From a virus: a stretch of 59,919 nucleotides of DNA. A program made the position numbers and the translations under genes. Below the pieces are notes generated by a model, which saw nothing but the letters and a program-made list of their open reading frames with translations, did not search any database and was not told the origin of the DNA. The stretch lies in UHGV virus genome UHGV-0342645; one strand, given 5' to 3'. Shown one piece after another: positions 7,137 through 45,505 of this stretch (positions within the stretch are counted from its first letter, which is position 1; each line of letters begins with the position of its first letter).

Positions 7137-7529
7137 TTACTCCGCTAATGTGTAAGGAATACCGGATGCTTTAATCTGTCTGTACATGTCCATAGTACCA
7201 GCTCCGCCCGGAAACACAATAGCGTGATCTGGTTTGGGATCAGTATCCAGCATTAATTGATTGCGGTAAGCGCCAGCTTGTGCATTATAAGCACCTCTGG
7301 CGTTATACCGTATCTTAGTATTCGGTAAGGAAAGATTGTCCCACGGCGCAGGAAACGCCTCCGTCTTAATACCGTTCCGCTCCGCCCAATGTGCGCAAAT
7401 GCGGTCAACACCGTCAGCGTCACCGTGGCGAAGTGTGGTTATCCTTCTTTGCATATGCAGCTTATCCAATTGAGCATAGATATACTCCACATTCTTAAAA
7501 TTACGACCTCCGGTAACAACTAATAGCAT
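7137..7529 (-). CDS. SLOG/DUF2493-like Rossmann-fold protein (YspA/DprA-like nucleotide-binding fold)
   Basis: MLLVVTGGR...HGDADGVD...FPGGAGT pattern typical of SLOG-superfamily proteins; 130 aa. Confidence 0.4.
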   Translation of the reverse strand: MLLVVTGGRNFKNVEYIYAQLDKLHMQRRITTLRHGDADGVDRICAHWAERNGIKTEAFPAPWDNLSLPNTKIRYNARGAYNAQAGAYRNQLMLDTDPKPDHAIVFPGGAGTMDMYRQIKASGIPYTLAE

Positions 7530-7592
7530 TATTTCTTCTCCAATGGTTTCAACATTTCGTCAATAAAACCTTTCCAATATTTGATATTTTCT

Positions 7593-8066
7593 TCAATCAA
7601 CAATAATCTCCTTAAAACGGTTATACAAATCACGATAGAACAAAGGACCATTAGCATTGCGACGCAGGAAGTCCTTTGCTACAGCTTCCAGAGCTTCGCA
7701 GCGATCACGCAACTCTTGAGCCTTCTTCTCGGTATGCGCCCACACCTCTTCGCTGGTCACACCCGGCGGATTCATTGCACCAACAATTTGACGCAAACGA
7801 ATATAAGAATCGGATAAAGCGTGTTCAGCAGCACGCATGTCGACAAGGTTAGTTTCAGCATTTTCGGCACGTTCTTCCTGAGCTCGCCATTCTGCTTCTA
7901 GCTGGTCAATGCGCATATCACGATAACCCAGTTCCGCAGCAATATCACCTTTGCTGTGCAAACCTTCGGATGTCATTGCCATAACATGACGGGAGTAATA
8001 ACCTCCAGCTTGATCCAGTTCCCAAGCGTCGCGTTCTAAATCATAGCATTTATTTTTCTGTGACAT
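7593..8066 (-). CDS. hypothetical protein (coiled-coil)
   Basis: 157 aa ORF; no recognisable motif. Confidence 0.45.
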   Translation of the reverse strand: MSQKNKCYDLERDAWELDQAGGYYSRHVMAMTSEGLHSKGDIAAELGYRDMRIDQLEAEWRAQEERAENAETNLVDMRAAEHALSDSYIRLRQIVGAMNPPGVTSEEVWAHTEKKAQELRDRCEALEAVAKDFLRRNANGPLFYRDLYNRFKEIIVD

Positions 8067-8352
8067 ATGTAGTAATCTCCTTCAGCGTATCGCGCCAGTC
8101 CGCACCTTCAAGGTCAACTTCACCGCAGTAGCGACACTTATCACCATCATACAGCCATTCTTTAAGTTGTTCATATGCTTTAGGCTTACTATTATAACAG
8201 TGGACAACACCGTTAGCATCCACTGCAATGTGAGTAGCCCAAGGTGCCACAGGGATTTCCTGACCAAAAAACAGGACTTTGATTGCAGTTTTAGAATCGA
8301 CCGCAGGGATATCCGGTTTTTCTCGATTTAAATCCATTCCTAAATAAAGCAT
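8050..8352 (-). CDS. hypothetical protein, member of a 3-copy small paralog family (shares the ..AVD.NG.V.CY...P... VDLEG.DW..TL.E pattern with 8683..8964 and 29405..29659)
   Basis: 100 aa; motifs HIAVDANGVVHCYNSKP and GEVDLEGADWRDTLKE recur in the other two ORFs. Confidence 0.5.
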   Translation of the reverse strand: MLYLGMDLNREKPDIPAVDSKTAIKVLFFGQEIPVAPWATHIAVDANGVVHCYNSKPKAYEQLKEWLYDGDKCRYCGEVDLEGADWRDTLKEITTYVTEK

Positions 8353-8403
8353 AACAACCTCCAGATAATTAAGGGCTCCGTAGAGCCCATTATAGATTGA
8401 TAA

Positions 8404-8682
8404 TTACACTTCCTCCAGGAAATTGGCGCCTACAAGACCAGTATAACTGATTTCGTAAGCATCCTCTTCTTCATCGTATTCATCGCTACCCTGGCTAACA
8501 ATTACAGTATGGTTCCACTGCCCGAAAAGGCTATGCAGATCAAACACCACCTTATTAACAGTAACAATAGAACCAGCTTTCAGTTCCCGGAACTCAACAC
8601 CATCGCCCGGAGCATACCCAACACCGCCAATATCAGTCAGTAAACGATACTCTTTACCTTCAACAATCTCTTCTACACGCAT
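8404..8682 (-). CDS. hypothetical protein
   Basis: 92 aa acidic ORF. Confidence 0.4.
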   Translation of the reverse strand: MRVEEIVEGKEYRLLTDIGGVGYAPGDGVEFRELKAGSIVTVNKVVFDLHSLFGQWNHTVIVSQGSDEYDEEEDAYEISYTGLVGANFLEEV

Positions 8683-8964
8683 TTAAGCCTCCGAACTAAC
8701 ATTAACTAAAGAATTTACCCAACGACCTTCTTCGAAAGGAAACTCGCCAATAAAGACGGATTTACCCGTATCCTCATACCATCTGTCGTAATCGTCGTAT
8801 CCGTCTATATAAGGCTCATTTTCATAAGCATAGAGCTCTTCACACTTATCAACCGCGAGCCAGTTAGCCCAGACAGGCACTACAACCCGAGTCCCGAAAT
8901 AGTTAACAACCTTTTCATCATATTCTACACGCATTCTTCTTTCCTCTATATATTTTTCTGCCAT
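8683..8964 (-). CDS. hypothetical protein, paralog family member (WLAVDKCEELYAYENEP)
   Basis: 93 aa; shares the LAVDK..E.YE.EP motif with 8050..8352 and 29405..29659. Confidence 0.45.
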   Translation of the reverse strand: MAEKYIEERRMRVEYDEKVVNYFGTRVVVPVWANWLAVDKCEELYAYENEPYIDGYDDYDRWYEDTGKSVFIGEFPFEEGRWVNSLVNVSSEA

Positions 8965-9302
8965 TGACGAACAGTTTCTAACATAGATTTATAATCGTCA
9001 TCCCAATCATAATTCTCAACATCTTTTTGAAGTTTGGCGATCATTTCTTCAAGGCTGTTAGCTGGTAAGTAGCTTTCACCAAATGCAGCAAGACGTTTGT
9101 GATAATCGGGGCTTTGTTCATCCACCCAGCCAAATTCAGCTTCAAATGAATCACAACCCGAGCACGATCCATAAGAACCTTCACAAACCCCCAATACACC
9201 ATCTTTTCTTATCAGGGCAAGCCATTCACCCTGATAACAACCAAACTCAACAAAATCTAATACTTCGCATCCAGCAGCTTCTAATGCTAATTGATAAGAC
9301 AT
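8946..9302 (-). CDS. hypothetical protein
   Basis: 118 aa ORF. Confidence 0.45.
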   Translation of the reverse strand: MSYQLALEAAGCEVLDFVEFGCYQGEWLALIRKDGVLGVCEGSYGSCSGCDSFEAEFGWVDEQSPDYHKRLAAFGESYLPANSLEEMIAKLQKDVENYDWDDDYKSMLETVRQWQKNI

Positions 9303-9670
9303 TCTTCTTGCTCCTCTACATATTTAGTGACACATTTTTGAAAATTAAGAACGATATTTTTCTCTTTTACGGAGTGAAATTTAACACGTTCCGGGCAGAT
9401 AATCCAGCCTTCAAAACGTTGAGTAGCGTCATTCCATGCAGCACGACCATAATAGCCGCGATATGGACCTAATCGCATTGCATTTACCTCTGTAACCACA
9501 TTGCTGGAGGTGCTGGGTGTAGCGCTTACACTGGAGTCGCACATAATACCTCCTTGATGCTCTAAAAACAGGTGTGAATTGATAGAAATTGCTTGCATCC
9601 GCTTAAAGATGGTAGCTATGGAGCAGCTACAAGACGAATTATACGTTGACGACTCAGAATTTACTACCAA
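9287..9670 (-). CDS. hypothetical protein
   Basis: 127 aa ORF. Confidence 0.45.
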   Translation of the reverse strand: MVVNSESSTYNSSCSCSIATIFKRMQAISINSHLFLEHQGGIMCDSSVSATPSTSSNVVTEVNAMRLGPYRGYYGRAAWNDATQRFEGWIICPERVKFHSVKEKNIVLNFQKCVTKYVEEQEECLIN

Positions 9671-9878
9671 AATCCATATATTTGACGGTTATAGTGAATA
9701 TGCCATGTTTAATATTGTCCGTGAGATACAAATTACTATCCAATTCCTCTTTAGTGTACAGATAAGCATTACTTACTTCATCTGTAAGTCCTTGCATCGG
9801 AGCAAGCAGCCACCAACCCCTCCAGTCAAACATAGGCGATTTATCAGACACTCTTAATATATAACGTTTATTATTCAA
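9654..9878 (-). CDS. hypothetical protein
   Basis: 74 aa ORF. Confidence 0.4.
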   Translation of the reverse strand: MNNKRYILRVSDKSPMFDWRGWWLLAPMQGLTDEVSNAYLYTKEELDSNLYLTDNIKHGIFTITVKYMDFGSKF

Positions 9879-9898
9879 ACCAATACCTTGTCACCAGA

Positions 9899-9994
9899 CT
9901 AATTTCGCATTGCTAGTACAACAATTAGCACCATTAACATTGCTCCAGCTACCATACCGAGCACAAATACACTAGCTAATCCGATTAAACTCAT
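9899..9994 (-). CDS. 31-aa hydrophobic micro-protein (MSLIGLASVFVLGMVAGAMLMVLIVVLAMRN)
   Basis: Not in the ORF track (<60 aa); GGAGA RBS 9 nt upstream of the ATG; a single predicted TM helix; heads the minus-strand operon. Confidence 0.3.
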   Translation of the reverse strand: MSLIGLASVFVLGMVAGAMLMVLIVVLAMRN

Positions 9995-10281
9995 TTCAAT
10001 ATCTCCGATCAGTTTTATATCATCCATATTTTAACACTAAACCCAGTATATAGAAAGCGTGAAATACTCAAGGGTCCGTTTTTAAGGTAGGTGGGGTCAT
10101 GGATGTAGGTGGATAGTAAAGTGATGGGTGAGATTTAGACAAGGACTTACTATCAGGATGGACAGGGCACGCCCCAGCGCTCCAAGTACCTGGAAAAGGA
10201 TGGGTCGGGTTGCGCGGCTGGGCCTGCGTGGGTCGGTGTGCGCTGTGCGAGCTGTGCGCCACGCTGTGCGCCTGTTTCACC

Positions 10282-10320
10282 CGAGCTAATGCATTACCAT
10301 TGCCTATATGCATTAGCTCG
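10282..10320. repeat. perfect 13-bp-stem hairpin (CGAGCTAATGCAT-13 nt loop-ATGCATTAGCTCG) preceded by a GC-rich island with 4x CTGTGCG tandem motifs (10237-10275)
   Basis: Read directly from the sequence; local GC content is far above the genome background. Confidence 0.6.
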
Positions 10321-10340
10321 CTAGCGTGGCGCTGTGTGTG

Positions 10341-10499
10341 TTATAGCGCCGCTCCTCCTTTGCGGGCTTTACGTGCTGCATAACGCTGTTCCCTTACTTC
10401 GTTGTATTGGCGATCCCATTTAGCATCCATTACTTCGGTTACGATCAGTGCTACCAGTGGACTTACTACTGCGATAACCATCATAATTAAAATTAACAT
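10341..10499 (-). CDS. 52-aa small membrane protein (MLILIMMVIAVVSPLVALIVTEVMD...)
   Basis: Not in the ORF track (<60 aa); GGAG RBS about 10 nt upstream; hydrophobic N-terminus and basic C-terminus. Confidence 0.3.
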   Translation of the reverse strand: MLILIMMVIAVVSPLVALIVTEVMDAKWDRQYNEVREQRYAARKARKGGAAL

Positions 10500-10548
10500 T
10501 TTGTTTACTCCGTTATTTGGTTGATGTATGTAGTATCCACCAGACCGA

Positions 10549-10731
10549 TCACGATGTCCAGATGTTTTGGTCGATTAATTTTGCATAGAAGTCGCGCCCT
10601 GTCTGCATGGCTTGGGACCAGTTGGTTTCTTCCCATTCCATGCGCATAACCTGCAATAATAACGCGTGTTGTGCGCGGGTAAGTTTGTTTTTACTGGACA
10701 TAATATACCTCTGCATAGTTAAGTTAGCCAT
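10549..10731 (-). CDS. hypothetical small protein (first minus-strand gene after the divergent promoter region)
   Basis: 60 aa; AAAGGGG RBS upstream of the ATG. Confidence 0.4.
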   Translation of the reverse strand: MANLTMQRYIMSSKNKLTRAQHALLLQVMRMEWEETNWSQAMQTGRDFYAKLIDQNIWTS

Positions 10732-10798
10732 TTTGTGTACCCCTTTAAGTTAAGTTTTACTGTATTACCTTGCTATGTGTATATAGTAATGCTAGACC

Positions 10799-10827
10799 TA
10801 AAACTTGCCAAGTGTTTTTGCACTTTT
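10799..10827 (+). promoter_or_regulatory. sigma70-like promoter candidate (TTGCCA-17 nt-TATAAA) in the divergent intergenic region
   Basis: -35 at 10799-10804 and -10 at 10822-10827; AT-rich surroundings; sits between divergently oriented gene blocks. Confidence 0.35.
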
Positions 10828-10948
10828 TATAAAAATATTTTGGCACCTTTTATGCCTGCGTGTGCGTGCCCGCGCGTATAGTGCAATTCGTGTGATGTTA
10901 GTTAGGCCGTTTGTGCTAAACATGCAGGGCAAGCATAATTTTCACTAG

Positions 10949-11206
10949 ATGCAAAACAATATCAAAATAGCACTTTTGGCCTATTCAATATCACGATGCA
11001 AGGCTATTATTACTTCAACAAAGCAATACTGCTTAACCACATTAGGTAGCATCATGGAATTCAAATTAGTGGGACTCGAGTCCGGTAAAATAGCTGGTTA
11101 TGTATCTGCTCCAAGCTGGGAAGAGGCCGAAATCTTCTTAATGGGTCAGTTCGATATGTACATTAGCGAAATTTACAAAGAATACGATTTAGTCCAAATT
11201 AAGTGA
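10949..11206 (+). CDS. hypothetical protein
   Basis: 85 aa; first plus-strand ORF after the divergent region; weak RBS. Confidence 0.35.
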   Translation: MQNNIKIALLAYSISRCKAIITSTKQYCLTTLGSIMEFKLVGLESGKIAGYVSAPSWEEAEIFLMGQFDMYISEIYKEYDLVQIK

Positions 11207-11274
11207 TTTATATCTTGCCTAGTTGATACGACTGGGCAATAATAAGTCAACTTAAACAAAACGAGGATTACATC

Positions 11275-11523
11275 ATGGCTACTTCTATCGTCACCAAATT
11301 TTTGGCACCAACTAACACCAAAGGCGCACGCATTGCAGTTAAAGGTTTTGGCAAGCGCAAAGTCTATAGCTGGGACTATGCACTCGACGTAACGCTTAAC
11401 CATAAAGCAGCGGTACAGCAGTTCCTCAAAGCGTTTAACGCCGAAAACGACACCGACTATGGCATCGTTGCTTTCGCAAGCATGGATATCGCAACCGCCG
11501 ATTTCGTAGCAATCGTGCAGTAA
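11275..11523 (+). CDS. hypothetical protein
   Basis: 82 aa; GAGGA RBS upstream. Confidence 0.5.
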   Translation: MATSIVTKFLAPTNTKGARIAVKGFGKRKVYSWDYALDVTLNHKAAVQQFLKAFNAENDTDYGIVAFASMDIATADFVAIVQ

Positions 11524-11595
11524 GTTTTCTTATACACTGCTCATCATTACGGTGGGCAGTAATAAGCAAACTAACATTAACGAAAGGAGATATAC

Positions 11596-12169
11596 CATGT
11601 CTAAAGTAACTCACCGCGAACAGGACAAAATGCGCTACACCATGAAAACGAATGCACGCCGCGCCCTTAAGACCCGTTGGGGCCAGGTTGCACGCGATGC
11701 ACACGAACAGTTAATCCATCAGGACGATATCGGTTTTTACATCGTCGAAAAGGAAGTCCTTCAGGTTCTGCGCGACCATGAAAAAGCTCAAAAGCCGGAG
11801 CAGAAAGTCCCAGCACCGACCGCCGCGCCAGCTGCCCGCGTCTCGGTACTGCGCCCGATGGTAAATCCGGAAATCGTCAAAAGCTGCCTCGAAGCTCTGG
11901 AGCAGGAGGAAGAGAAAGATATGAAACACGCAAAAGCTGCCGCACCAAAACAGGATGCAAAAGCTGCTCGCTGTGATTTCAAAAATGGCGCTCGCAAGCC
12001 GCTCAAAGGAAAAACTGCCGAAGTGTGGGCAATGGGTGACAAACTTCTGAAGGAACTGGGCCGCACGCCGGAGCTGAAAGAAATGAAAGCTGCAATGCCT
12101 TCTTACAACGGGACAACTGTTGCCATTCAGTTCTACGCCTGGCGCAAATATAACGACCTGGACGCATAA
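11596..12169 (+). CDS. hypothetical protein
   Basis: Start refined to MSKVTHREQ, with AGGAGA RBS; 191 aa. Confidence 0.5.
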
Positions 12170-12209
12170 TCTATAACCACACTGTTCACTGACGGCTTCT
12201 GCGGGAGCC

Positions 12210-12545
12210 CTATTTAAGATAAAGATTTTCAATCATATCGTTTTTCGGGTCGTTAATATACTTCCCGAAGACAGCTTTCTTACCCTGCGGCCCGTGGAAC
12301 ATTTCGTACACAATACGGGTCCGTAACACTTTACGGTTTTCCCCGCCACAAATTGGAGCAAGACTAATCCTAGCTTGCAGATGAGCAGCGCATATATCCT
12401 TAGCTTCGTCACCTTTAGTTATGCCATATTTTTTAAAAGACTTCTTCCAGAATAAATCCCCGTCGCGGTATTCAAAATATTTATTCCAATTAGGTTCCTT
12501 CTTCCACCAGTGCTTTTCATAATCCCATTCAAGGCTCATAGTCAC
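12210..12545 (-). CDS. opposite-strand moron: short homing-endonuclease-like protein (resembles an N-terminal fragment of HNH_3/NUMOD-type homing endonucleases)
   Basis: 111 aa on the minus strand inside the plus-strand block, with its own strong RBS (GAGGAG); the pattern DGDLFWKKS...RIVYEMFHGP...NDPKNDMIENL resembles the DNA-binding N-terminal part of phage HNH homing endonucleases, but no catalytic HNH motif is present. Confidence 0.4.
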   Translation of the reverse strand: MTMSLEWDYEKHWWKKEPNWNKYFEYRDGDLFWKKSFKKYGITKGDEAKDICAAHLQARISLAPICGGENRKVLRTRIVYEMFHGPQGKKAVFGKYINDPKNDMIENLYLK

Positions 12546-12759
12546 TCCTCTTGATGATTTAATTTGCGCGCGCTACGTAAGACAGCCTCCTTAGACTTGT
12601 TATCGCGGCTGCGGCTACCCGTGTTACCGGACCGCTGCAATAACTCCTCTCTGCCTTAACGCAGATTATAGCTTGATATACCTTCCGATCACAATAGTTC
12701 AATAAATTTGCCTCAAAAGCACTTGACTTCTCGTTTTTGATCTGCATCCGTTCAGGTTT

Positions 12760-13230
12760 ATGAAAGTTTATAGAGTTTATATTGTGAAGTATAAACAATC
12801 ACATAATACCAATAGGTACTATATACATTAATAATAAATCCTTATTTTATATATATTTATAGTTATTATTAATATTAGTTTAATTTGGTTTATTTTAGTT
12901 AGTTGACTGAAAGTTTATAAGTTTATAGGGGTATACTCCCAACTTTTTTCAGATAATTAATAGTATAGTAGTGATAGTGGTTTTTGCACGTTTTCACTAC
13001 TACTACTAATTATTTGTTTGAAAAGGGGGTAATAAGGGGAAACCGTAAACTTATAAACTTTGCTCTGTGTAAAAATAAAAAATTAGTGAATAGTGAGATA
13101 GTGGTTCATAGTGGCAAACTTTTACAAAGCGAGTAACGACGCACTATACACATTTTGCCCACTATGTACGCCACTAAGCACTATATTAAAACAATCCTTG
13201 CAAATAGCTAATGTCTGTTTTATAGTGGCT
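12760..13230. repeat. AT-rich intergenic iteron array: about 8 copies of ATAGTG(G)/CACTAT in both orientations, plus AAAGTTTATA(A/G)AGTTTAT direct copies (12762, 12910) and an inverted copy (13043-13062)
   Basis: Read directly from the sequence; 450-bp non-coding AT-rich stretch upstream of gene 13254. Confidence 0.55.
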
Positions 13231-13253
13231 TCACCAGTTGACTAGGAGGATTT

Positions 13254-13982
13254 ATGAGCGAAGAAACTATTACGTCTAAAACTGTGGTTAAAGATTTGTG
13301 CTATGTTGCATGGGTTGCTCAAGCTTGCTCGCAGTTGCGCGGTGCACCAACCAAATCACAGGCGCTTGCTATGGTGGAGAATTACTTCAACGATGATTTG
13401 GAACAGCCAGTTAAAAAATCTGTAAGACCGAAAGCGGGAAAGCTGGATGCAGAACGGGCGACTTTTCTTGCATGGGTTAGCGATAAGCTGGGCCATGAAC
13501 TGGATGCCAAAGAGCTTCGCAGCTATACGGGCAAATTCAATTACCACACGGGCAAGGGTAACGACCCATATGAAGAAGCATTTAAGGTGAAAGAAGATAA
13601 GGGTAAGGTAGGGCGCAAGGAAAACGTCGAGCTTAAAGCATGGATAGAGCGCCAAGCTTTGCTCAAAGGGGATTCTCTGACAGATAAGGAAGCGGATAAA
13701 TTGACACATCGTTGGTACAGGATGCGCCGGAGCGGCGATATCCAGGACTGGGATAATCGCGGTCGCTGGCCTACCTGTTCCCTGCACCATTACGAAACCG
13801 CTACCGCTATCCGTGTCAAGCTTGGCGCTCATTGGGTAGACCTTGCAATATACAAGGATGCTGAGCAGGCTAAAAATATTCTTCCGAACATTGATAATTG
13901 GCTTATTAGCTTAAGACAGGGAAGGGAACCACAGGACGTTATGTTAGAAGTTGGTAACCATATTATCACAACTCCGCACTAA
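13254..13982 (+). CDS. hypothetical protein (first gene downstream of the iteron array)
   Basis: 242 aa; strong AGGAGGA RBS. Confidence 0.55.
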   Translation: MSEETITSKTVVKDLCYVAWVAQACSQLRGAPTKSQALAMVENYFNDDLEQPVKKSVRPKAGKLDAERATFLAWVSDKLGHELDAKELRSYTGKFNYHTGKGNDPYEEAFKVKEDKGKVGRKENVELKAWIERQALLKGDSLTDKEADKLTHRWYRMRRSGDIQDWDNRGRWPTCSLHHYETATAIRVKLGAHWVDLAIYKDAEQAKNILPNIDNWLISLRQGREPQDVMLEVGNHIITTPH

Positions 13983-14047
13983 TGCAAAAATAGTTGCAAA
14001 GTAAGGCGTTACTGTGTATTGTGTGGACGGTTGTAACGGAGGGTATT

Positions 14048-14251
14048 ATGGATCACGAATCGGAATTTGATTTGAACTACATAACGGCGGCGGAAATCGA
14101 AGACCGTTATGGCATATCTAAGTTTAAGATGTCGCGCATACGTGATAGCATCCCGGGCGCTATCAGAATTGCTAACCAGTACATCTACAAACGTTCCTTA
14201 GCGGTGCCCGCCCTGGAAAAGATGCAAGGCGATAAGCGTCGGAGGTCATGA
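14048..14251 (+). CDS. small putative HTH DNA-binding protein
   Basis: Start refined to MDHESEF, with GGAGGG RBS; ITAAEIEDRYGISKFKMSRIRD resembles a helix-turn-helix. Confidence 0.4.
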   Translation: MDHESEFDLNYITAAEIEDRYGISKFKMSRIRDSIPGAIRIANQYIYKRSLAVPALEKMQGDKRRRS

Positions 14252-14463
14252 TGGTACTTAGTGAAGTTGGACAAAATAAGCTTCGGGAGCAGGGTTGGTT
14301 TATTGGGCATTACATGCATTACCGCACAGCTTATATTATGGTTGCTGGGACTATTGTTTACCTTGGACATTATGAGAGCTATCTGGATGCAGAGAAAGTC
14401 ATCAACAAGACTAAGGAGCACTTATTAGTCGCCATCGGTTGCGCAATGGTTAGTTCTCAGTAA
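14248..14463 (+). CDS. hypothetical small membrane-associated protein
   Basis: 71 aa; start overlaps the upstream stop (ATGATGG). Confidence 0.4.
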   Translation: MMVLSEVGQNKLREQGWFIGHYMHYRTAYIMVAGTIVYLGHYESYLDAEKVINKTKEHLLVAIGCAMVSSQ

Positions 14464-14474
14464 AAGGATAAATC

Positions 14475-16817
14475 ATGGAACTGTTTCCCGCTGAAATTAA
14501 AGCTTTCCCACAATGGGCGGTCGCTGATGCGGATAAAAAGCCGCTTGTATGGGACAACGATATCGGACGTTTGATGGCGGCGGACGTTACCGATCCGGAT
14601 ATGCTAATGACGTTTGAAGCTGCCAAAGGTTGCGCTGCTCATTTCAATAAACCTTATATTGGCTTCGTGCTTACTGCGCAAGACCCGTTCACCTGCATCG
14701 ACCTGGATGTAAAGAACGCAACCAATGAACCTGATCCCAAGAAGCACACGACGCCGGAACAGTTGCGCCGCTTCGAACAGATTATGACCGCGTTCGATAC
14801 TTACACCGAAGTAAGTCGCTCAGGATTGGGCGTCCACCTGTGGTTAAGAGGTAACATCGGTAAAGGTCGTCGGCGTGATGGTGTCGAGGTTTATAGTCAG
14901 GAGCGTTTTATTATCTGCACGGGTAATCCTGTCTATAACAAACCAGTTGCAGAACGTGATCATTATCTTACTATGCTTGTGAATGAAATTGATCTTCAGC
15001 GCAAGACATATGAAATTGAACTGGTAGAAAAAGATCCGGTAGAAGACGACGCAACTATTCACCAGCGTGCGCTTGAAGCAGACAACGGCGATAAGTATGC
15101 ACGCCTCTTCAATGGTGAATGGGTTGAAATGGGATTCCCTTCCCAGTCTGAAGCAGATCTTGCCCTTATTTCCATGTATGCATTCTACACAGAAAGTAAT
15201 GAGCAATGTCGTCGTCTCTTCCGTTACAGTGCACTGGGCAAACGTGAGAAGGCTAATAAGAACAATGTTCATATTGACCGTTGTTTACGCATGTGTCGTG
15301 GTCGCATGGAACGTGAGCGCATTGCTCAGGAAAACGTAGCGGCGCTGGCGCGGGATTACGCTGCCCGTATGCAAGCCGCACACAGTGCAATGCAGCAGGT
15401 AACAGAAATGCCTGTAACCGTCGAAACAACACAGGGGCAGACAGTAGTTGCAGAAAGCACATCCGTTGATGCAACAGCTATTGAATGGCCGCCGGGGCTT
15501 GCTGGTGAGCTTGCTAAATATATATACAAAGCATCCGTCAGACCAGTGAAAGAAATCTCTATTGTTACCTCGCTCGGATTTATGGCTGGGGTATGCGGGA
15601 AAGTATGGCAGATCCCGCAATCCGGTCTTAATGGATATTTTGTCTTAATTGCTCGTTCTGGTGTTGGTAAAGAGACGTTGAACAGTGGGCTGTCTAATAT
15701 AGTTAGCCAGATTCAGGACCAGTTTCCGCAGATTCATAGCTTTGTATCTTTTGATAGATGCGCTTCTGGATCTGCACTGCGTAAATCTTTTGCAGACAAA
15801 CAATCTTTTATCAACCTGAATGGTGAGTTCGGTAAGATTATCAAAGCAATGGCAACGGCTCCAGCAGGCTCGCCGATGCAAAGTTTCAAGAATGACCTTA
15901 CCGATGTTTATCAAAAGTCCGGTCAGATGTCTATCGTTGGTGGTATGTCTTATTCTGATAAGGCTAATAATACTGAAGCTCAACAAGGTGTGGCATATAG
16001 CATCATGGGCGAAACGACACCGGATACGTTCTTTGAAGCATTAACCCGTGAAATGATGGAGGATGGATTCTTATCCCGTTTCCATGTTGTACGCTATGAA
16101 GGTGATCGACCGCCTTTAAACAAAAATCAGCAGACTACAATGGATCAGCATTTGAAGGACATGGTGTGCCATCTTGTTAACCACACTTTAGTAACAATGG
16201 CAAAGCATCAGAGTATTGAAGTACAGTTTAGCCCGGATGCGGAAGCATTATGCGATCAGTTTAACGATGAATGTGATCGCAATATTAACGCAACCAAAGA
16301 CGAAGCAATCCGTCAGCCGTGGAACCGTGCTCACCTGAAGGTCTTGCGACTTTCTGCCTTGTTAGCCGTGGGTGAGAACTGGATCAATCCGGTGGTACAA
16401 ACCTATCATGTGCAATGGGCTTTGGACTTCGTGCGTCATGGGCAGGATATTATTATGAAGGAATGGCATAGCGGAGGCATTGGGACTAATGATGAAGCTC
16501 GTATCCGTACTATGTGTCAGGTCTGTGTGAATTATCTAACTAAAGACTGGGTGAAAGTTAAACGTGTAGATTTGCGCAAAGAAGGTATTATCACGCGAGG
16601 GGATATTACTACGCGTCTTGCAAGTAAGTCCGCGTTTAAAAACTATCATCACGGATTATCCGCTGCAATCGAGTCTACAATCAAGGAGATGGTTGCTATG
16701 GGTGCACTTGTTCCGGTAACACGGGAGGAGACTATTAAACTGGGATTTACTGGGGTAGCTTGGCGCATTACGCAAGATGTTGAAGGAATTATGGCAAACT
16801 TAGGTGAAGAGGAATAA
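14475..16817 (+). CDS. bifunctional primase-polymerase (prim-pol) N-terminal domain fused to a D5-like P-loop helicase
   Basis: 780 aa. N-terminal FVLTAQDPFTCIDLDVK (DxD acidic motif of prim-pol domains); central Walker A ARSGVGKET; the size matches phage primase/helicases. Confidence 0.75.
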   Translation: MELFPAEIKAFPQWAVADADKKPLVWDNDIGRLMAADVTDPDMLMTFEAAKGCAAHFNKPYIGFVLTAQDPFTCIDLDVKNATNEPDPKKHTTPEQLRRFEQIMTAFDTYTEVSRSGLGVHLWLRGNIGKGRRRDGVEVYSQERFIICTGNPVYNKPVAERDHYLTMLVNEIDLQRKTYEIELVEKDPVEDDATIHQRALEADNGDKYARLFNGEWVEMGFPSQSEADLALISMYAFYTESNEQCRRLFRYSALGKREKANKNNVHIDRCLRMCRGRMERERIAQENVAALARDYAARMQAAHSAMQQVTEMPVTVETTQGQTVVAESTSVDATAIEWPPGLAGELAKYIYKASVRPVKEISIVTSLGFMAGVCGKVWQIPQSGLNGYFVLIARSGVGKETLNSGLSNIVSQIQDQFPQIHSFVSFDRCASGSALRKSFADKQSFINLNGEFGKIIKAMATAPAGSPMQSFKNDLTDVYQKSGQMSIVGGMSYSDKANNTEAQQGVAYSIMGETTPDTFFEALTREMMEDGFLSRFHVVRYEGDRPPLNKNQQTTMDQHLKDMVCHLVNHTLVTMAKHQSIEVQFSPDAEALCDQFNDECDRNINATKDEAIRQPWNRAHLKVLRLSALLAVGENWINPVVQTYHVQWALDFVRHGQDIIMKEWHSGGIGTNDEARIRTMCQVCVNYLTKDWVKVKRVDLRKEGIITRGDITTRLASKSAFKNYHHGLSAAIESTIKEMVAMGALVPVTREETIKLGFTGVAWRITQDVEGIMANLGEEE

Positions 16818-17068: not shown

Positions 17069-17226
17069 TTTGTAATCCTCCGTTTTGCTTATGAGTTAAT
17101 AGTACAGTTAGACTGATCAGATGTAAAGGCAAATCGTGCTATTTTATAGATGCATTTCAAGTCTAAAGTTGTTGCATACATCTCAAGTCCTGCTATACTT
17201 ACAGCATAAAGTTAACGGAGGGAACA

Positions 17227-17301
17227 ATGTTCGAGCTTTTAAAATTATTTGCGGGTGCTATTTTCGTAGCTGGTTATTTCTGGTTTATGTATATATTATG
17301 A
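17227..17301 (+). CDS. 24-aa hydrophobic micro-ORF (MFELLKLFAGAIFVAGYFWFMYIL)
   Basis: Strong GGAGGG RBS 5 nt upstream; the stop overlaps the RBS of the next gene; not in the ORF track. Confidence 0.25.
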   Translation: MFELLKLFAGAIFVAGYFWFMYIL

Positions 17302-17309
17302 GGTGTGAA

Positions 17310-17618
17310 ATGAAAAAGTTAACAACCGTATTAATGTTTACGACTGCTTTTATGTTTTCTGCTAGCTGCATTAGCGCAACTAAGGATTGCCAAAAAGCGG
17401 TCACTGAGTTTCAGTCAAAGTTGCAACTTAAACGAACTGAATTGCAGACTAGCAACGACATTGCATTTTGTACAACTATTCAGCGTAAAGCTCAGCACGC
17501 AACAGTTGATGAAATTATGGAACCATTGAAAAACTTTAAAAACCCGGAACGTAAGTACTATGTGTCTATTGCCACTTATGCTTTCGTAACACGGTCTTTA
17601 GCGGAGGATTTAAAATGA
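17310..17618 (+). CDS. secreted or periplasmic small protein with N-terminal signal peptide
   Basis: Start refined to MKKLTTVLMFTTAFMFSASCISA (signal-peptide-like), with GAGGTG RBS; 102 aa. Confidence 0.5.
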   Translation: MKKLTTVLMFTTAFMFSASCISATKDCQKAVTEFQSKLQLKRTELQTSNDIAFCTTIQRKAQHATVDEIMEPLKNFKNPERKYYVSIATYAFVTRSLAEDLK

Positions 17619-17920
17619 GCATTGTAAATACTATCTGCGAAGCAATCTATGCAGAGCTTATCCGTGAAAACGTAAATAATGAGGACAATAACCAAATCCA
17701 AAAGATTTTGGTTGATCATAAAACTTATGCAGAGATTCGTCACGACAATGCTTTTCCTCATTGGTGTCATATTTATTATCCGCGTCGTGAGGATGAATCT
17801 ATTGTACTTACAATCATGGGCTATGCTATTGTTCCAACTTATGAAGTACAAGGTTTTGAAATACTTCTAAGAGGTGGTACTTTAGCACCAAAAGCGGCAA
17901 AGGGAACCGCGCAAAATTGA
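17615..17920 (+). CDS. hypothetical protein
   Basis: 101 aa; start overlaps the upstream stop. Confidence 0.45.
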   Translation: MSIVNTICEAIYAELIRENVNNEDNNQIQKILVDHKTYAEIRHDNAFPHWCHIYYPRREDESIVLTIMGYAIVPTYEVQGFEILLRGGTLAPKAAKGTAQN

Positions 17921-17923
17921 AGC

Positions 17924-18264
17924 TTGCCATTCAAGACTGCATCCTTTAAGATAACCACAGTTAACGAGGTTTAACAATTTAACAACATTAACTTAGTGAA
18001 CGATGCTTAACTCAAGCCCTTGAAAGTGGTAGCTGTACCTCCTTACAGCAACTACTTTCGCTGGGCTTCCTGGAGCGGACAGGGTAAACCCGCAACTTAC
18101 TGAACGATGTGAACGATGTTTAACGCGACGGCGCCAGATGTACCAAACCGTCACCAGCCTTTGGCGAGGCTGTACAAGTAGGCCAGGATAGACGAAGACG
18201 GCAGTCAAAGTAAGCTATCCGACAATCAAGAGAGCCCAGGAATCCTTATGCCTGGGCTTTTTTG
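17924..18264 (+). ncRNA. candidate non-coding transcription unit of about 300 nt: promoter-like TTGCCA-17-TAAGAT (17924-17952), internal GTGAACGATG(N)TTAAC repeats (17996-18011, 18109-18125) and TTAAC clusters, ending in a strong intrinsic terminator (18233-18264)
   Basis: No protein-coding ORF with an RBS occupies the region; the terminator is AGCCCAGG-loop-CCTGGGCT followed by TTTTTT. Confidence 0.35.
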
Positions 18265-32519: not shown

Positions 32520-33101
32520 ATGCGTAAAGATACTGTAAAAATTGCTATTAGTTCATTACTTTTAAATATTGAAGGTTCAACAGAACTCCGTCCTGGGTTG
32601 GAAGAGACTCCTGAACGTGTCGCTAAAGCATACCAGACGTGGTTCGGCGGTTACGATGTAGATATCGCTGGATTGTTTAAAACCTTTGAGGATGGGGCTG
32701 AAAACACCAATGAAATGGTCATTGCCCGTGATATTCCTGTATACAGTCATTGTGAGCATCACATGGCTCCTATTATCGGTCATGCTGTTGTGGGTTATGT
32801 TCCCAATGGGAAGATCGTTGGGCTCAGTAAACTGTCTCGCGTAGTTGATGCTTTTAGCCGTCGCTTGCAAGTCCAAGAGCGTCTAACTAACCAGATTGCA
32901 GACGCTATCCAGGAGCATTTAAACCCGAAAGCTGTATGCGTTTATATTGACGCCAAACATATGTGCATGGAGTCGCGCGGTGTTAAGCAGGTATGCGGCA
33001 GCTCTACCATTACCAAAGCGTTCCGGGGCGCTACAGAACTGGAGCATGGTAGCGATATTGGTAAAGAATGGCGCCGGGAGTTCCTTGAAGCTTGTAAATA
33101 A
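32520..33101 (+). CDS. folE: GTP cyclohydrolase I
   Basis: SHCEHHM zinc-binding motif; 193 aa; first step of the preQ0 pathway. Confidence 0.85.
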   Translation: MRKDTVKIAISSLLLNIEGSTELRPGLEETPERVAKAYQTWFGGYDVDIAGLFKTFEDGAENTNEMVIARDIPVYSHCEHHMAPIIGHAVVGYVPNGKIVGLSKLSRVVDAFSRRLQVQERLTNQIADAIQEHLNPKAVCVYIDAKHMCMESRGVKQVCGSSTITKAFRGATELEHGSDIGKEWRREFLEACK

Positions 33102-33120
33102 TAGATAGCTTTACAGATCA

Positions 33121-33158
33121 AGCCCATATCGGTCATAATACTGGTATGGGCTTTTTAG
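33121..33158 (+). terminator. terminator-like hairpin (AGCCCATA-17 nt loop-TATGGGCT-TTTTAG)
   Basis: 8-bp stem and U-tract after the folE stop. Confidence 0.45.
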
Positions 33159-33171
33159 TTGGTATAAGACA

Positions 33172-33729
33172 ATGGAAATTATCACAAGAGCTGAAGCAAA
33201 AGAAAGAGGTTTGAAATATTATTTTACTGGTAAGCCTTGTGCGAAAGGTCATCTTTCTGAAAGAAAGACTGTAGATGGCTATTGCATTACTTGTGACAGA
33301 GAAGCACGAAAGAAAAGAATGCGTATTTACAATAAAACAGAAGCTGCAAGGAATGCTATTAAGAGATATCATAAGTCACAGAAAGGAAAAGAAGCCCTTC
33401 AACGTTCAAAAGCTGCTTATAATTCTACTGAGAAAGGTAAAGAACAAAATAAAGAAAGGCTGAAACGCTGGGCTAAGACAGATTACGGTAAAGCTAGATC
33501 AAGATTACATTCCCTTGAAGTGCATAAGAAAAGGTCTTTAAGAATCCCTGCGTGGTCTGAAAAAGAACAAATTGAATTGTTCTACGCTAACTGCCCGGAT
33601 GGGATGGAGGTTGATCATATTATACCTCTTTGCGGTAAAAGAGTTAGTGGACTTCACGTCCTTAGTAACCTACAATACTTATCTATTGAAGAAAACAGAT
33701 CTAAGCGTAATAAATTTGAGGTGGAATAA
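33172..33729 (+). CDS. HNH homing endonuclease
   Basis: C-terminal HNH motif EVDHIIPLCGK...NLQYLSIEENRSKRN; the N-terminus has CxxC...CxxC; inserted between folE and dpdA. Confidence 0.7.
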   Translation: MEIITRAEAKERGLKYYFTGKPCAKGHLSERKTVDGYCITCDREARKKRMRIYNKTEAARNAIKRYHKSQKGKEALQRSKAAYNSTEKGKEQNKERLKRWAKTDYGKARSRLHSLEVHKKRSLRIPAWSEKEQIELFYANCPDGMEVDHIIPLCGKRVSGLHVLSNLQYLSIEENRSKRNKFEVE

Positions 33730-34649
33730 TGCATCTGTTTGTTGCTGCGGTATATACCAACGGCTATAAAGCTGGTCAACAACGATATGAAAAGTTAAAC
33801 GATCGGGAAAAGGACATCGTTAATAGCCTACCAAATATTTTGGAATCATACCACTACGTTGGACGTCAGAAGTATGTTGATCAAATGCGTGCGGACGGGG
33901 CTAAAGTGTTTCTCGACTCCGGAGCATTCTCCGCGCACTCGTTAGGTGCTCACATTGATATTGTCGAATATTGCGAATACATCAAACGCAATAAAGATAT
34001 CCTGCGCGTAGAAGATGGTGCTGTAATGGCGTCAGTGCTTGATGGTATCGGTGATCCACTGCAAACCTACCGTAACCAGCTTGAAATGGAAGCACGCGGT
34101 GCTAAACCGTTACCTTGCTTTCACTTTGGGGAGGACTTCCGCTATCTCGAATATTACATGAAGAACTACGAATATATCACCATCGGGGGCATGGTAGGGC
34201 GTTCCACGGACACGCTTAAAACTTGGCTTGACCGCATGTGGGATAAATATATTTGCGATGGTAGCGGTCGCCCTAAGATTAAGCTTCATGCATTTGGTAT
34301 TACGTCCACTACCATTATGGAACGTTACCCGTGGTATAGCTGTGACTCATCCTCCTGGATTCAAGCGGCAGCGTTTGGAAGTGTGGTTACTCCTCCGTGG
34401 GGCCCGATGCGCGTATCTGACAAGTCACCGGACCGACACCATTTCGGTAAGCACGTTTCAACGCTAACTGAAATTGAACAAGACGCTGTCCTTAAATACC
34501 TTGAGCAAAACGGTTTCACTTACGAACGTTTATCAACAATCTATGAATCACGTGCTGCCTTCAACTTATGGGCGTATGGTGTAATTGCTGCAAACATTAA
34601 CGCTACCCATGACGGCACATTCCGTGATCGTGTAATGGAGTTGTTCTGA
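33729..34649 (+). CDS. dpdA: DpdA-like DNA 7-deazaguanine transglycosylase (TGT superfamily)
   Basis: 306 aa; LDSGAFS resembles the TGT LDSGGFQ substrate-binding motif. Co-located with queCDE/folE, as in phage deazaguanine DNA-modification clusters. Confidence 0.65.
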   Translation: MHLFVAAVYTNGYKAGQQRYEKLNDREKDIVNSLPNILESYHYVGRQKYVDQMRADGAKVFLDSGAFSAHSLGAHIDIVEYCEYIKRNKDILRVEDGAVMASVLDGIGDPLQTYRNQLEMEARGAKPLPCFHFGEDFRYLEYYMKNYEYITIGGMVGRSTDTLKTWLDRMWDKYICDGSGRPKIKLHAFGITSTTIMERYPWYSCDSSSWIQAAAFGSVVTPPWGPMRVSDKSPDRHHFGKHVSTLTEIEQDAVLKYLEQNGFTYERLSTIYESRAAFNLWAYGVIAANINATHDGTFRDRVMELF

Positions 34650-34876
34650 TGGCTAACTTAAGAAGACCAAAAGGTAAACGTAAATATACTCACACAGGCG
34701 TAAGAATTAATTACTACGGTGAAAACAGAGTAGTATTCCTCCACAAGACACCTAAGCAGTGGCAGGATCCGTCAGGCACATGGTTTAATGCACAAGGGAA
34801 ACAAATGGGACTTTATGGATACCCTCCAACCTGTGAATTAGATTTAACCACAATTAGAGCAATCGAGGATCGCTAA
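34649..34876 (+). CDS. hypothetical small protein
   Basis: 75 aa; translationally coupled (ATGA overlaps). Confidence 0.4.
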   Translation: MANLRRPKGKRKYTHTGVRINYYGENRVVFLHKTPKQWQDPSGTWFNAQGKQMGLYGYPPTCELDLTTIRAIEDR

Positions 34877-35829
34877 TGTTAGACGCTCTTAAATTTGTTC
34901 AAGGCTCCGTTGCTAAAAAGGAACTGGTAGAAGGGCTTACCAGTTTTCTTATTCGTGACGGCCAAGTACAGGGCTTTAACGGTGTTATCGCACTGGGTAG
35001 CCCTATTGAGTTGGATATTGATTGCAAGCCCGAAGCTGGACCTATGATCAAAGCTATTTCAAACTGTGATGAAACAGTGCAGTTAACAATGATGGCTAAC
35101 GGTAAGCTGAATATCAAGTCAGGTCCGTTTCGTGTTGCTATACGCTGCATTGATAAAGAAACGCCGCACGTATTCCCTGAAGGCGATTTGTACGAAATAG
35201 ACGGTGCTCGCTTTGTTCATGGTGTGAAGTCCGTTGCTCCATTTGTAGGCTCCGATGCTTCCCGTCCGTGGGCTTGCGGTATCCTGATTAATAACGGTAG
35301 CCTGTTTGCTACAAATAACGTCACTATTGCGGAATACTGGTTTGGTAATCAATTCCCTATCGATTGCATAATACCTTCCGTTGCAATTAAAGAAATACTG
35401 CGTATTAAAGCTAACCCGACGCATATTCAGGTCAGTAAAAATAACGTAACGTTTCATTATTCGGAAGGTCGCTGGTTGCGCACACAGCTTATTGATGCAG
35501 AGTGGCCCGATATACGTCGTATTTTAAATGTTCAATGCAATGCACATCCTGTTGATCCAGGTCTTTTTGAAGGCTTGCATAAAATTAAACCGTTCGCAGA
35601 AGACCGACCGCGTGTATATATTGAAAACGGTCTAGCCCGTACTCACTATGATGATGCGGAAGGTGCAAGCTTTGTATTACAGGACCGCACAATAACGGGA
35701 GTGTACAATATTGACATCCTGCTATTGCTTGAAAATGTGGTTAAGACTGCGGACTTTAGTTTATATCCGCAACCTTGCGCATTCTTTGGGGAAAATCTTC
35801 GCGGTGTATTAATTGGAGAACGTGTCTAA
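34876..35829 (+). CDS. hypothetical protein; possibly a sliding-clamp-like processivity factor (weak)
   Basis: 317 aa immediately upstream of and coupled to the DNA polymerase; acidic; no firm motif. Confidence 0.3.
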   Translation: MLDALKFVQGSVAKKELVEGLTSFLIRDGQVQGFNGVIALGSPIELDIDCKPEAGPMIKAISNCDETVQLTMMANGKLNIKSGPFRVAIRCIDKETPHVFPEGDLYEIDGARFVHGVKSVAPFVGSDASRPWACGILINNGSLFATNNVTIAEYWFGNQFPIDCIIPSVAIKEILRIKANPTHIQVSKNNVTFHYSEGRWLRTQLIDAEWPDIRRILNVQCNAHPVDPGLFEGLHKIKPFAEDRPRVYIENGLARTHYDDAEGASFVLQDRTITGVYNIDILLLLENVVKTADFSLYPQPCAFFGENLRGVLIGERV

Positions 35830-39646: not shown

Positions 39647-39931
39647 TTAAAGGTCGCTTTCGTTATCCTGCTTGGAACTGGGCTTTTCAGATTCAATCAT
39701 TCCAAGTACCGCAATAACTTTAACAGCAATACGCTGAGCCAGACTGATTTGCTGCTGGGTTAATTTTCCGGTCGACACCACAGTCATTAACCCGCTCAAG
39801 TTTCCAAGAGACTTGAAATCGCTGAATGCTGATTTCATAATACTAAGTTGATCATGACCTTCATCAGCTATAACATGAGCACGAATAGAAAGTCCTTCAA
39901 CAACTTTATCAATACCTTCATTCTTCGTCAT
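39647..39931 (-). CDS. hypothetical protein
   Basis: 94 aa. Confidence 0.45.
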   Translation of the reverse strand: MTKNEGIDKVVEGLSIRAHVIADEGHDQLSIMKSAFSDFKSLGNLSGLMTVVSTGKLTQQQISLAQRIAVKVIAVLGMIESEKPSSKQDNESDL

Positions 39932-40448
39932 TTGGTTTTACCTTCTGCTCCGGTTTCTGAGGGACCGTTTGAGCGGTCTTTGGCTGCAACACTTCCTGAT
40001 CAATCATTGGTGGCCACGGACTAATATGTTCCCGGGCTTCTACAGGTTGCTCCGGTTGCACGCCAAGAAACTTATTAATAAAATCACCTGCAAAGTCTGT
40101 ACCATCGCTGACATAAACGTGCATACGATCAAGATCAGACTGACTAATGGAGTTTGGAGCGATCGTGATTTTAAACTGGTGGAAGCCGACATACATCACA
40201 TTCACGGGTCGTTCGATAGTGCCCGGCGTAGGCGGTATCACTCCCATAATCCAACAGTAATGAACCCTTCCATCACCCATAGGTTCACAGCCAGCATTAA
40301 GCCAGCTAACCTTCTGGTGTGGGAACATGGTAGTTGAATCGGTAGCGTCCCGACGTAACGTCCAATCAACACCGCCCATGTTGATGGAGTTTTTCGGTTT
40401 CATCCCGTTGAACTGGGTTACGCCCATTCCTGCGTTTACGTTTTGCAT
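39918..40448 (-). CDS. hypothetical protein
   Basis: 176 aa. Confidence 0.45.
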   Translation of the reverse strand: MQNVNAGMGVTQFNGMKPKNSINMGGVDWTLRRDATDSTTMFPHQKVSWLNAGCEPMGDGRVHYCWIMGVIPPTPGTIERPVNVMYVGFHQFKITIAPNSISQSDLDRMHVYVSDGTDFAGDFINKFLGVQPEQPVEAREHISPWPPMIDQEVLQPKTAQTVPQKPEQKVKPNDEE

Positions 40449-40463
40449 GTCGGCTTCCTATTA

Positions 40464-40832: not shown

Positions 40833-40903
40833 GATAGTACCTCTGTTAAAAGCGCCCCAAGCGGAGGAGCGAAAGGCGCTTTAGTTTAACCACACTTCAA
40901 CGA

Positions 40904-41611: not shown

Positions 41612-41782
41612 AGGAAAATCTCCATATATGGATTTGTTAAGCGGATGTAACCAACTGGTTACGAAGTAAAGCATACCCCTTAACATGCTTTTTACAATGA
41701 TCCATATGTAAAGATTTTGTAAATTAGGATTGACAGCCAATAAAAAGCGCGCCCGAAGACGCGCTGTTGAAGTCAGATGTGG

Positions 41783-42763: not shown

Positions 42764-42772
42764 AACTACTCC

Positions 42773-45195: not shown

Positions 45196-45266
45196 ATTTA
45201 ATTGACTTACTCAACCTAACAAGTATATTAAACTTGAACCTTGACAACAACCTAAAAGGAGTCCCG

Positions 45267-45500: not shown

Positions 45501-45505
45501 AAATT

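Follow-up and report, generated by a model that had tools for sequence, protein, structure and literature searches.

A conserved intergenic element ahead of the primase-helicase gene of a Seuratvirus coliphage fits a replication origin joined to a swappable control cassette

The window analysed here, the whole 59,919-nucleotide (nt) stretch of UHGV virus genome UHGV-0342645, is the near-complete genome of a Seuratvirus (Queuovirinae) coliphage. This report concerns a non-coding gap of about 600 base pairs (bp), retained by every relative, which is followed by a gene for a protein of 242-260 amino acids (aa), then a 67-aa gene and then a 780-aa primase-helicase gene. Two kinds of short repeat lie in the gap, called type 1 (ATAGTG and its variants) and type 2 (GTTTATR and its variants) below. 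The repeat region was defined as 12756-13228 and the whole composite element as 12665-13253. Positions 12000-15000 are 93% identical to phages KS_A8, SHIN8, phiG7 and SeppeHuegi, and in phage Seurat the gap heads a long cluster of replication and nucleotide-metabolism genes, approximately 10 kb from TerS/TerL. About 20 relatives were compared; the gap alignment (A1) comprised six relatives and the site maps 11 loci, including metagenomic ones (contigs designated L). A scan of IMG/VR yielded only three loci. The anatomy of the element is consistent with a replication origin not described before, to which an exchangeable control cassette is attached. The features are as follows.

12665-12755: ultra-conserved block of 91 nt, the left edge of the element, with a leftward sigma70-like promoter inside it
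12694-12665, minus strand: leftward sigma70-like promoter, TTGTGA-18-TATAAT (10/12 match)
12756-12796: type-2 cluster 1, direct units GTTTATG at 12756, GTTTATA at 12766 and GTTTATA at 12775, and an inverted unit at 12790-12796
12797-12902: AT-rich tract, a candidate DNA-unwinding element, flanked by type-2 clusters in every lineage
12902-12909, plus strand: invariant GTTGACTG, 100% conserved across the six A1 relatives, whose primase C-termini are of types I and II
12910-12927, plus strand: type-2 cluster 2, two direct units, AAAGTTTATAAGTTTATA; AAAGTTTTAGGTTTTTGG in type-II phages
12928-12940: near-palindrome GGGGTATACTCCC, found in most lineages; perfect, GGGGTATACCCC, in KS_A8
12966-13008: type-1 inverted repeat TAGTAGTGATAGTGG ... 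CACTACTACTACTA; TAGGG/CCCTA replaces every TAGTG/CACTA in Seurat and CAjan
13045-13061, minus strand: type-2 cluster 3, two inverted units, an inverted copy of cluster 2 (16/16 complementary)
13083-13114, plus strand: type-1 array, four direct sites (TTAGTGA, ATAGTGA, ATAGTGG, ATAGTGG)
13142-13184, minus strand: type-1 array, four inverted sites (CACTAT three times, CCACTAA)
13198-13226, plus strand: rightward sigma70-like promoter, TTGCAA-17-TATAGT (9/12 match)
13222-13228, plus strand: type-1 site ATAGTGG on the -10 hexamer of the rightward promoter
13254-13982, plus strand: 242-aa orphan gene (phrog_27223), candidate reader of type-1 sites through residues ~51-115
14048-14251, plus strand: 67-aa small gene (phrog_11967) with a helix-turn-helix (HTH)-like motif
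14475-16817, plus strand: 780-aa primase-helicase gene, with an NrS-1-type prim-pol, an MCM/ORC-like AAA+ part and a C-terminal alpha/beta domain
16515-16814, plus strand: hypervariable C-terminus of the primase-helicase, residues 681-780, candidate reader of type-2 units

Eight exact copies of ATAGTG/CACTAT were found in 12974-13227, of 24 in the window, and every other 300-bp stretch of the window has at most one copy. An earlier description of this DNA by a model that saw only the letters (the sequence-only reading) had reported at least eight, in agreement with this count. The chance level was determined from 5000 dinucleotide-preserving shuffles of 12760-13253, in which ATAGTG occurred 0.43 times on average and four times at most, none of the 5000 reaching eight. 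The looser core TAGTG was present in 12 copies compared with 1.5 expected, and GTTTATA in six exact copies in 12766-13058 compared with 0.47 expected (0/5000 shuffles). Both repeat kinds were 8-14 times as frequent as in the local shuffles and formed no other cluster in the window. A candidate second type-2 cluster at 25.2-25.5 kb lies inside a helicase open reading frame (ORF) and was rejected as chance.

The type-2 repeats had been described earlier as three copies of a 17-mer. One exact copy, AAAGTTTATAAGTTTAT, is present at 12910-12926, and an inverted copy with one mismatch at 13045-13061. The supposed first copy is AAAGTTTATAGAGTTTAT at 12763-12780, which was missed by the mismatch search because a 1-nt insertion separates its two 8-nt units. 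The true type-2 unit is 7-8 nt, GTTTATR, and at least eight such units were found in 12756-13061 (GTTTATG, five GTTTATA, one inverted GTTTATA and one GTTTAC). The AT-richness of the region was also borne out, with 77% AT over 12700-12999. Within it, 12803-12902 has an AT content of 86% and forms the least stable 100-bp duplex anywhere in the window (-0.975 compared with a mean of -1.355 kcal/mol per step, standard deviation (SD) 0.076), about 5 SD off the mean.

The order of the elements was constant in 11 representative loci, which represent five primase C-terminal types. The first half consists of the 91-nt block, cluster 1, the AT tract, GTTGACTG, cluster 2 and a GGGGTATAC.CCC palindrome; the second half consists of the type-1 inverted pair, a G-rich stretch, cluster 3, an A-rich stretch, the type-1 array and the promoter, after which come a ribosome-binding site and the first gene. 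Across six relatives the 91-nt block retains 98-99% identity, compared with only 32-77% for the adjacent segments, and it gave no indication of a structured RNA (fold z = 0.0 and 0.78). It is better conserved than the surrounding coding DNA. The hexamer TTGACT at 12903 was considered as a -35 element and rejected; no acceptable -10 follows it and the promoter scan made no call. Vid5-like phages and primase relatives at a greater distance lack a comparable gap ahead of the gene, indicating that the scaffold is limited to Seuratvirus-like phages.

The primase-helicase matched the NrS-1 helix-bundle domain and DUF3987 in Pfam. Its sequence matches in the PDB were PriRep of the Staphylococcus aureus pathogenicity island (SaPI) SaPI5 (7OLA, E = 7.7e-11, the best) and the NrS-1 primase-polymerase. 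The alignment with PriRep covers the N-terminal part only, the helicase part having no sequence match to PriRep. An AlphaFold2 (AF2) model, with a predicted local distance difference test (pLDDT) score of 86, matched NrS-1 N300, followed by MCM, ORC and Cdc6 AAA+ proteins. The model has a C-terminal helix/strand domain at 698-765, and MCM, ORC and Cdc6 themselves carry C-terminal winged helices. Approximately 270 phage records have this type of primase.

The type-2 units are lineage-specific. GTTTATR units are found in class A (the window-like phages), class C (Seurat, CAjan, slur01, SLUR76) and contig L018; GTTTT(T)G units in class B (Greed, SA80RD, SA126VB, Dru_SM1), class B', VogelGryff and STP-SP5; and ATTTTAY units in L015, L019 and L027. 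This partition matches the types of the last ~100 residues of the primase-helicase, namely type I (the window, KS_A8, slur01, Seurat and L018), type II (SA80RD, SA126VB, VogelGryff and L022, with STP-SP5 85% identical to it) and type III (L015, L019 and L027). These residues are 25-52% identical between types and about 40% between types I and II, whereas types I and II agree at 98-100% over residues 1-280. At the DNA level, the same two types share 99% identity in the flanking block and 100% in GTTGACTG, compared with 49-59% in the type-2 clusters. Since the flanking block, GTTGACTG and residues 1-280 are nearly identical, the divergence is concentrated in the type-2 clusters and the primase C-terminus. 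The layout of cluster 1, direct-direct-inverted, is the same in all lineages, with GTTTT(T)G units accompanying C-terminal type II and ATTTTAY units type III. The type-2 units follow neither the 242-aa protein nor the 67-aa protein, and each C-terminal type was found with two or three different downstream cassettes. When the primase C-terminal fragment was used alone in a protein search, only one match was returned. The primase-helicase gene is itself a mosaic, and its most variable stretch, residues 708-735, lies ahead of a conserved hydrophobic helix.

In type-II phages clusters 2 and 3, which form the two arms of an inverted repeat, have changed in concert (CCAAAAACCCAAAACTTT). The type-1 inverted repeat between them lies in the middle of an imperfect hairpin or cruciform of 150 nt, 12910-13061, and the 166-nt stretch 12903-13068 folds as DNA well beyond its shuffles (z = -6.2), so that a long hairpin is possible. 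The possibility was therefore considered that the nested inverted repeats act as a DNA cruciform or an RNA hairpin (a leader or small RNA) and not as protein-binding sites. The co-change of both arms between lineages would be expected of such a structure; however, inverted binding sites explain it equally well, and the motifs are found in direct orientation as well, where pairing is impossible (13083-13114 and cluster 1). Furthermore, the promoter scan found no promoter ahead of the hairpin, and a scan of 12100-13400 against Rfam 15 gave best E-values of 0.44 and 0.92, both to microRNA models and far below the gathering score. A purely structural role was judged very unlikely.

The type-1 sites also differ between phages, and do so along other lines. 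ATAGTG(G/A) is used by class A, class B and contig L019, ATAGGGT by class C and contig L015, and TAGGGGTA by contig L018; the sites counted were 47 for ATAGTG in four phages, 26 for ATAGGGT and 9 for TAGGGGTA. They are 6-7 nt long with an irregular spacing of 7-18 nt, and the ATAGTG cluster lies wholly upstream of the 242-aa ORF. The copies within one phage switch as a set, including the copy at the promoter -10. Because whole sets of copies change sequence together between lineages, the repeats are candidate specific protein-binding sites, and the comparisons support the view that they behave as such.

Which gene follows the type-1 switch was evaluated for three linked genes. The primase does not follow it (98.5% identity between classes A and C, 77% between A and B). 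Neither does the 67-aa protein; L015, with GGG sites, has an A/B-like allele whose putative recognition stretch is unchanged, and the allele of L018, with TAGGGGTA sites, is exactly that of Seurat. The 67-aa protein showed only sub-threshold similarities, to HTH_17, MerR and sigma region 4. In the 242-aa protein, residues ~51-115 alone segregate with the motif, with identities of 46-95% within a class and 30-41% between classes, and the segregation with GTG or GGG was perfect in 12 alleles. Segments 116-165 and 166-242 shuffle independently. The metagenomic contigs L015 and L019 differ solely in one cassette, with 95-96% identity on either side of it; the cassette begins immediately ahead of the first type-1 inverted repeat and ends with the stop codon of the 242-aa gene. 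The swap thus comprises the type-1 hairpin, the array, the promoter and the 242-aa ORF.

The 242-aa protein matched only phrog_27223 ('unknown function') in PHROGs, and an exhaustive profile search of 1.84 billion proteins found its family in two 50%-identity cluster representatives. An AF2 model (pLDDT 73.5) has three helix-hairpin repeats and a C-terminal domain of three strands and a helix, and no DNA-binding fold could be recognised in the protein. The repeats are internal units of ~40 aa (residues ~10-45, 63-98 and 123-157), each modelled as a helix hairpin, with the pattern F/L-x-A-W-V ... G-x-x-L-T-x-K-E ... Y. At least three segments of the gene have been exchanged independently of one another, making it a patchwork.

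The sequence-only reading had taken the whole region for a single iteron array and had suggested that the 242-aa protein could be the initiator that binds it. On this model the protein would, in the manner of lambda O or a plasmid Rep, recruit the primase-helicase. In lambdoid phages the N-terminal part of O determines iteron specificity, and in the phages examined here the co-variation of residues 51-115 with the ATAGTG/ATAGGG sites is consistent with such a role, as is the position of the type-1 inverted pair inside the putative origin, between clusters 2 and 3. However, the gene is absent from many Seuratviruses, among them VogelGryff, Skure, STP-SP5, yong3 and L027, in which the small gene directly follows the gap. 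Since these sister phages keep both scaffold and primase, the 242-aa protein appears to be an exchangeable accessory and not a conserved initiator. The narrow distribution of the family also argues against an initiator, as do the lack of homology to Rep, O or DnaD families and the short, irregularly spaced sites, unlike phased iterons of 17-22 bp. The AAAGTTTATA-type repeats that flank the AT-rich tract follow the primase-helicase C-terminal domain and not the 242-aa protein. The 242-aa protein as an essential initiator is thus unlikely, and the proposal as a whole was judged improbable. The single array was given up as well, for the two repeat kinds vary independently between lineages. What is retained of the earlier layout, an origin or a multi-operator region, is the anatomy of an iteron-type origin together with operator-like sites on the promoter of the downstream operon, and the 242-aa protein remains the best candidate reader of ATAGTG.

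Where the 242-aa gene is missing, the positions of the type-1 sites are taken by GGAATAA/TTATTCC repeats (8 copies), which were mapped at 1790-2440 in L011, 1800-2450 in L013 and 2480-3110 in L027.

In each of the classes A, B and C, there is overlap between a type-1 site and core promoter elements. In class C (Seurat) the promoter is TTGCAA-17-TACCAT with ATAGGG at the -10 position, and in class B it is TTGCCA-17-TATAAT with CACTAT sites in the -35 and the spacer. One alternative is that the region is purely transcriptional, its repeats being operators or activator sites that time the replication operon and the leftward transcript, its AT tract being promoter-associated curved or UP-like DNA, with replication starting elsewhere. 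The sigma70-like promoters at both edges (rightward 13198-13226, leftward 12694-12665) fit this explanation, and a cassette of sites plus gene is similar to the immunity (repressor-operator) modules of phages. An annotated terminator is also present upstream in relatives; it precedes the AT tract and type-2 clusters 1 and 2. However, the distance from the rightward promoter back to the AT tract and clusters 1 and 2 is 330-500 bp, too great for ordinary operators. The type-2 units follow the helicase C-terminus and no regulator-like gene, the least stable duplex of the genome is bracketed by repeats, and the promoter-like matches in the region are no more numerous than in shuffles (4 compared with 3.6). 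The transcriptional explanation was considered the strongest of the alternatives, though rather unlikely.

Short repeats arrayed in direct and inverted orientation are likewise characteristic of pac/cosB sites and of plasmid centromeres, and a packaging site (pac/cos) or a partition-like centromere, bound by the terminase small subunit or a ParB-like protein, was considered. In Seurat, however, TerS/TerL lie at 0.2-2.3 kb and the region at 46.6-47.2 kb of a 56.8-kb record, a distance of ~10 kb across the record ends; neither ParA nor ParB genes were observed in its vicinity, and the repeats follow genes of the replication module. Such a function has hardly any likelihood.

A DnaA-dependent origin was likewise rejected, there being no cluster of DnaA boxes. 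The sole match to TTWTNCACA in the region, TTTTACACA at 13066-13074 on the minus strand, right of cluster 3, is isolated and is not conserved in class B, and the window has three matches to the consensus compared with 7.8 expected.

The reading preferred here, to which about an even chance was assigned, is that 12665-13253 is a composite of an iteron-type origin with a self-loading primase-helicase, fused to an autoregulatory or origin-modulating cassette read by the 242-aa protein. From anatomy and co-variation we infer binding, melting, initiation and repression as follows. In a first layer, the C-terminal alpha/beta (winged-helix-like) domain of the primase-helicase would bind the GTTTATR clusters that bracket 12803-12902, with a further inverted type-2 cluster 120 bp downstream, and the helicase would melt the AT tract, load itself and prime, on the model of SaPI Rep/PriRep and P4 alpha. 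In a second layer, residues ~51-115 of the 242-aa protein would read ATAGTG at the inverted pair (12966-13008), the array (13083-13184) and the site at 13222. This binding would autoregulate the operon of the 242-aa gene, the small gene and the primase-helicase and may gate origin firing; sites and gene would be exchanged between phages as a cassette. The more specific proposal, that the 242-aa protein is a new kind of sequence-specific DNA-binding protein, made of three tandem helix-hairpin repeats, whose second repeat (~51-115) reads ATAG(T/G)G with single-base discrimination, and that with its sites it forms a swappable 'replication-immunity' cassette inside the origin, is put forward tentatively and is open to considerable doubt. 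On this proposal each Seuratvirus lineage would control origin firing and primase-helicase expression privately, and the hypervariable C-terminal domain of the helicase would add a second, independent specificity lock.

Among known systems, the SaPIs offer a close parallel. SaPI Reps are self-loading helicases whose C-terminal winged helix binds iterons of 5-6 nt, half of them on either side of a central AT-rich region (PMC9371898). As in SaPI Rep/PriRep, a primase and a helicase are fused and a C-terminal domain of a DNA-binding type is predicted here; multiple short repeats (5-8 nt) in both orientations lie on either side of a central AT-rich tract, and specificity varies between close relatives. 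The primase part is detectably homologous. SaPIs have six to twelve iterons, a range that includes the at least eight, slightly longer (7-8 nt) units found here. SaPI iterons are opposed, with at least two per side. In the present element three direct units and one inverted unit lie to the left and two direct units to the right, so that opposition is provided only by the single inverted unit of cluster 1 and by cluster 3, 120 bp further on. The SaPI origin is immediately downstream of rep, whereas the element lies ~1.5 kb upstream of the gene; the primase-helicase gene is followed by no more than a short gap, in which relatives have a terminator. The units here also frequently occur in pairs as 17-mers, interleaved with them are a second, orthogonal repeat system and a cassette gene, and the host of the element is a lytic siphophage, not a satellite.

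P4 alpha, a protein of ~780 aa, combines a primase, a helicase and a C-terminal origin-binding domain, and its octamer repeats (the type I iterons of ori/crr), direct and inverted, form more than one cluster. However, the P4 primase is of another type than the NrS-1-type archaeo-eukaryotic primase (AEP) prim-pol found here, no sequence or structure match to P4 alpha was obtained, and no distant second site was found, the matches at 25.2-25.5 kb lying inside a coding region.

The lambdoid O and immunity cassettes resemble the second layer in that an N-terminal part co-varies with repeated sites and a module is exchanged whole while other parts shuffle. In the Seuratviruses, however, the sites are upstream of the gene and not inside it, are 6-7 nt and not 19-bp iterons, and the protein, which has no O (Phage_rep_O) homology, is dispensable in sister phages. 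In iteron plasmids, Rep binds direct iterons in the origin and inverted half-sites on its own promoter. The AT-rich tract with direct repeats is shared with these plasmids, and copies of the site over the promoter of the downstream gene suggest autoregulation. In contrast to these plasmids, there is no Rep_3 or WH1-WH2 homology, the sites are 6-8 nt compared with iterons of 17-22 bp phased at ~22 bp, and only one DnaA-box match is present.

The NrS-1 polymerase has the same architecture of prim-pol, helix bundle and ring helicase. It requires an 8-nt template sequence; an 8-nt sequence found on both strands near the genome centre was proposed as its origin (PMC7102993). In the Seuratviruses, which have a separate DNA polymerase, the prim-pol is 98-100% identical in phages with different type-2 units and therefore cannot distinguish them.

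Several observations weigh against the composite origin and cassette. The 242-aa protein has no match in Pfam, NCBIfam or the PDB and no structural neighbour. No linked gene tracks the GGAATAA repeats, so that the reader of type-1 sites could be encoded elsewhere. The C-terminus of yong3 is only 42% identical to type I and represents a type of its own, yet this phage has a GTTTATR-like unit. The co-variation represents few independent events, with three or four C-terminal types and three motif variants, and physical linkage could produce part of it, since the N-terminal coding half of the 242-aa gene adjoins the type-1 sites and type-2 clusters 1 and 2 sit in 'backbone' DNA. Between the window and Seurat many other mosaic segments differ, and this comparison therefore does not exclude another co-varying gene. 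The putative origin lies 1.4-1.8 kb upstream of the helicase start (14475), unlike the position just downstream in SaPIs. The GC-skew minimum near 10.5-13 kb coincides with a switch of gene strand and is uninformative, and the literature search found no published study on this region.

Other features of the neighbourhood were recorded. The genes upstream of the gap are on the plus strand in relatives, so the gap is not simply one between divergent promoters. A 452-bp insertion at 12213-12664 of the window is missing from KS_A8, phiG7, Seurat and others, and carries a minus-strand ORF of 109 aa (ATG at 12539, stop at 12210) that is HNH-like, with a weak match to a PHROG annotated 'HNH endonuclease'. 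At the spot corresponding to window 12210-12664, SLUR76, STP-SP5 and L018 have different minus-strand HNH genes, and Dru_SM1 and yong3 have unnamed minus-strand ORFs. This spot, just downstream of the conserved leftward promoter, looks like a hotspot for homing endonucleases. At 14248-14463, ahead of the primase and after the small HTH-like gene, lies a 71-aa ORF without a family match. KS_A8, phiG7 and SLUR76 have it, Seurat and CAjan lack it, and SA80RD, Dru_SM1 and L018 have an HNH endonuclease in its place. A GTG-initiated ORF of 44 aa at 13111-13245 has an annotated coding sequence (CDS) as its counterpart in KS_A8, and both the promoter and the inverted type-1 sites overlap with it. No CDS is annotated there in the class B and class C relatives examined. 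This ORF is probably not a gene. Across the genome the median identity of the window to Seurat is ~91%, and the large mosaic segments 7500-11700, 17100-18000, 33000-35250 and 39900-47100 have little or no nucleotide similarity to it.

The Seuratviruses, whose DNA carries 7-deazaguanine modifications, include the BASEL phages KurtStettler, SeppeHuegi, WildeMaa, VogelGryff and GottfriedDienst, and no description of their origin or early regulation was found in the literature searched. The composite reading predicts that the type of primase-helicase residues 681-780 determines which unit they read, GTTTATR, GTTTT(T)G or ATTTTAY, and that residues 51-115 of the 242-aa protein read ATAGTG, ATAGGG or TAGGGG; the natural allele swaps are ready controls for both specificities. 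If the reading is correct, the principle of iterons and a self-loading helicase would hold, beyond SaPIs and P4, for a large group of lytic siphophages as well, a protein family without detectable relatives would gain a function, and phage engineering would have orthogonal origin and regulator parts to draw on.

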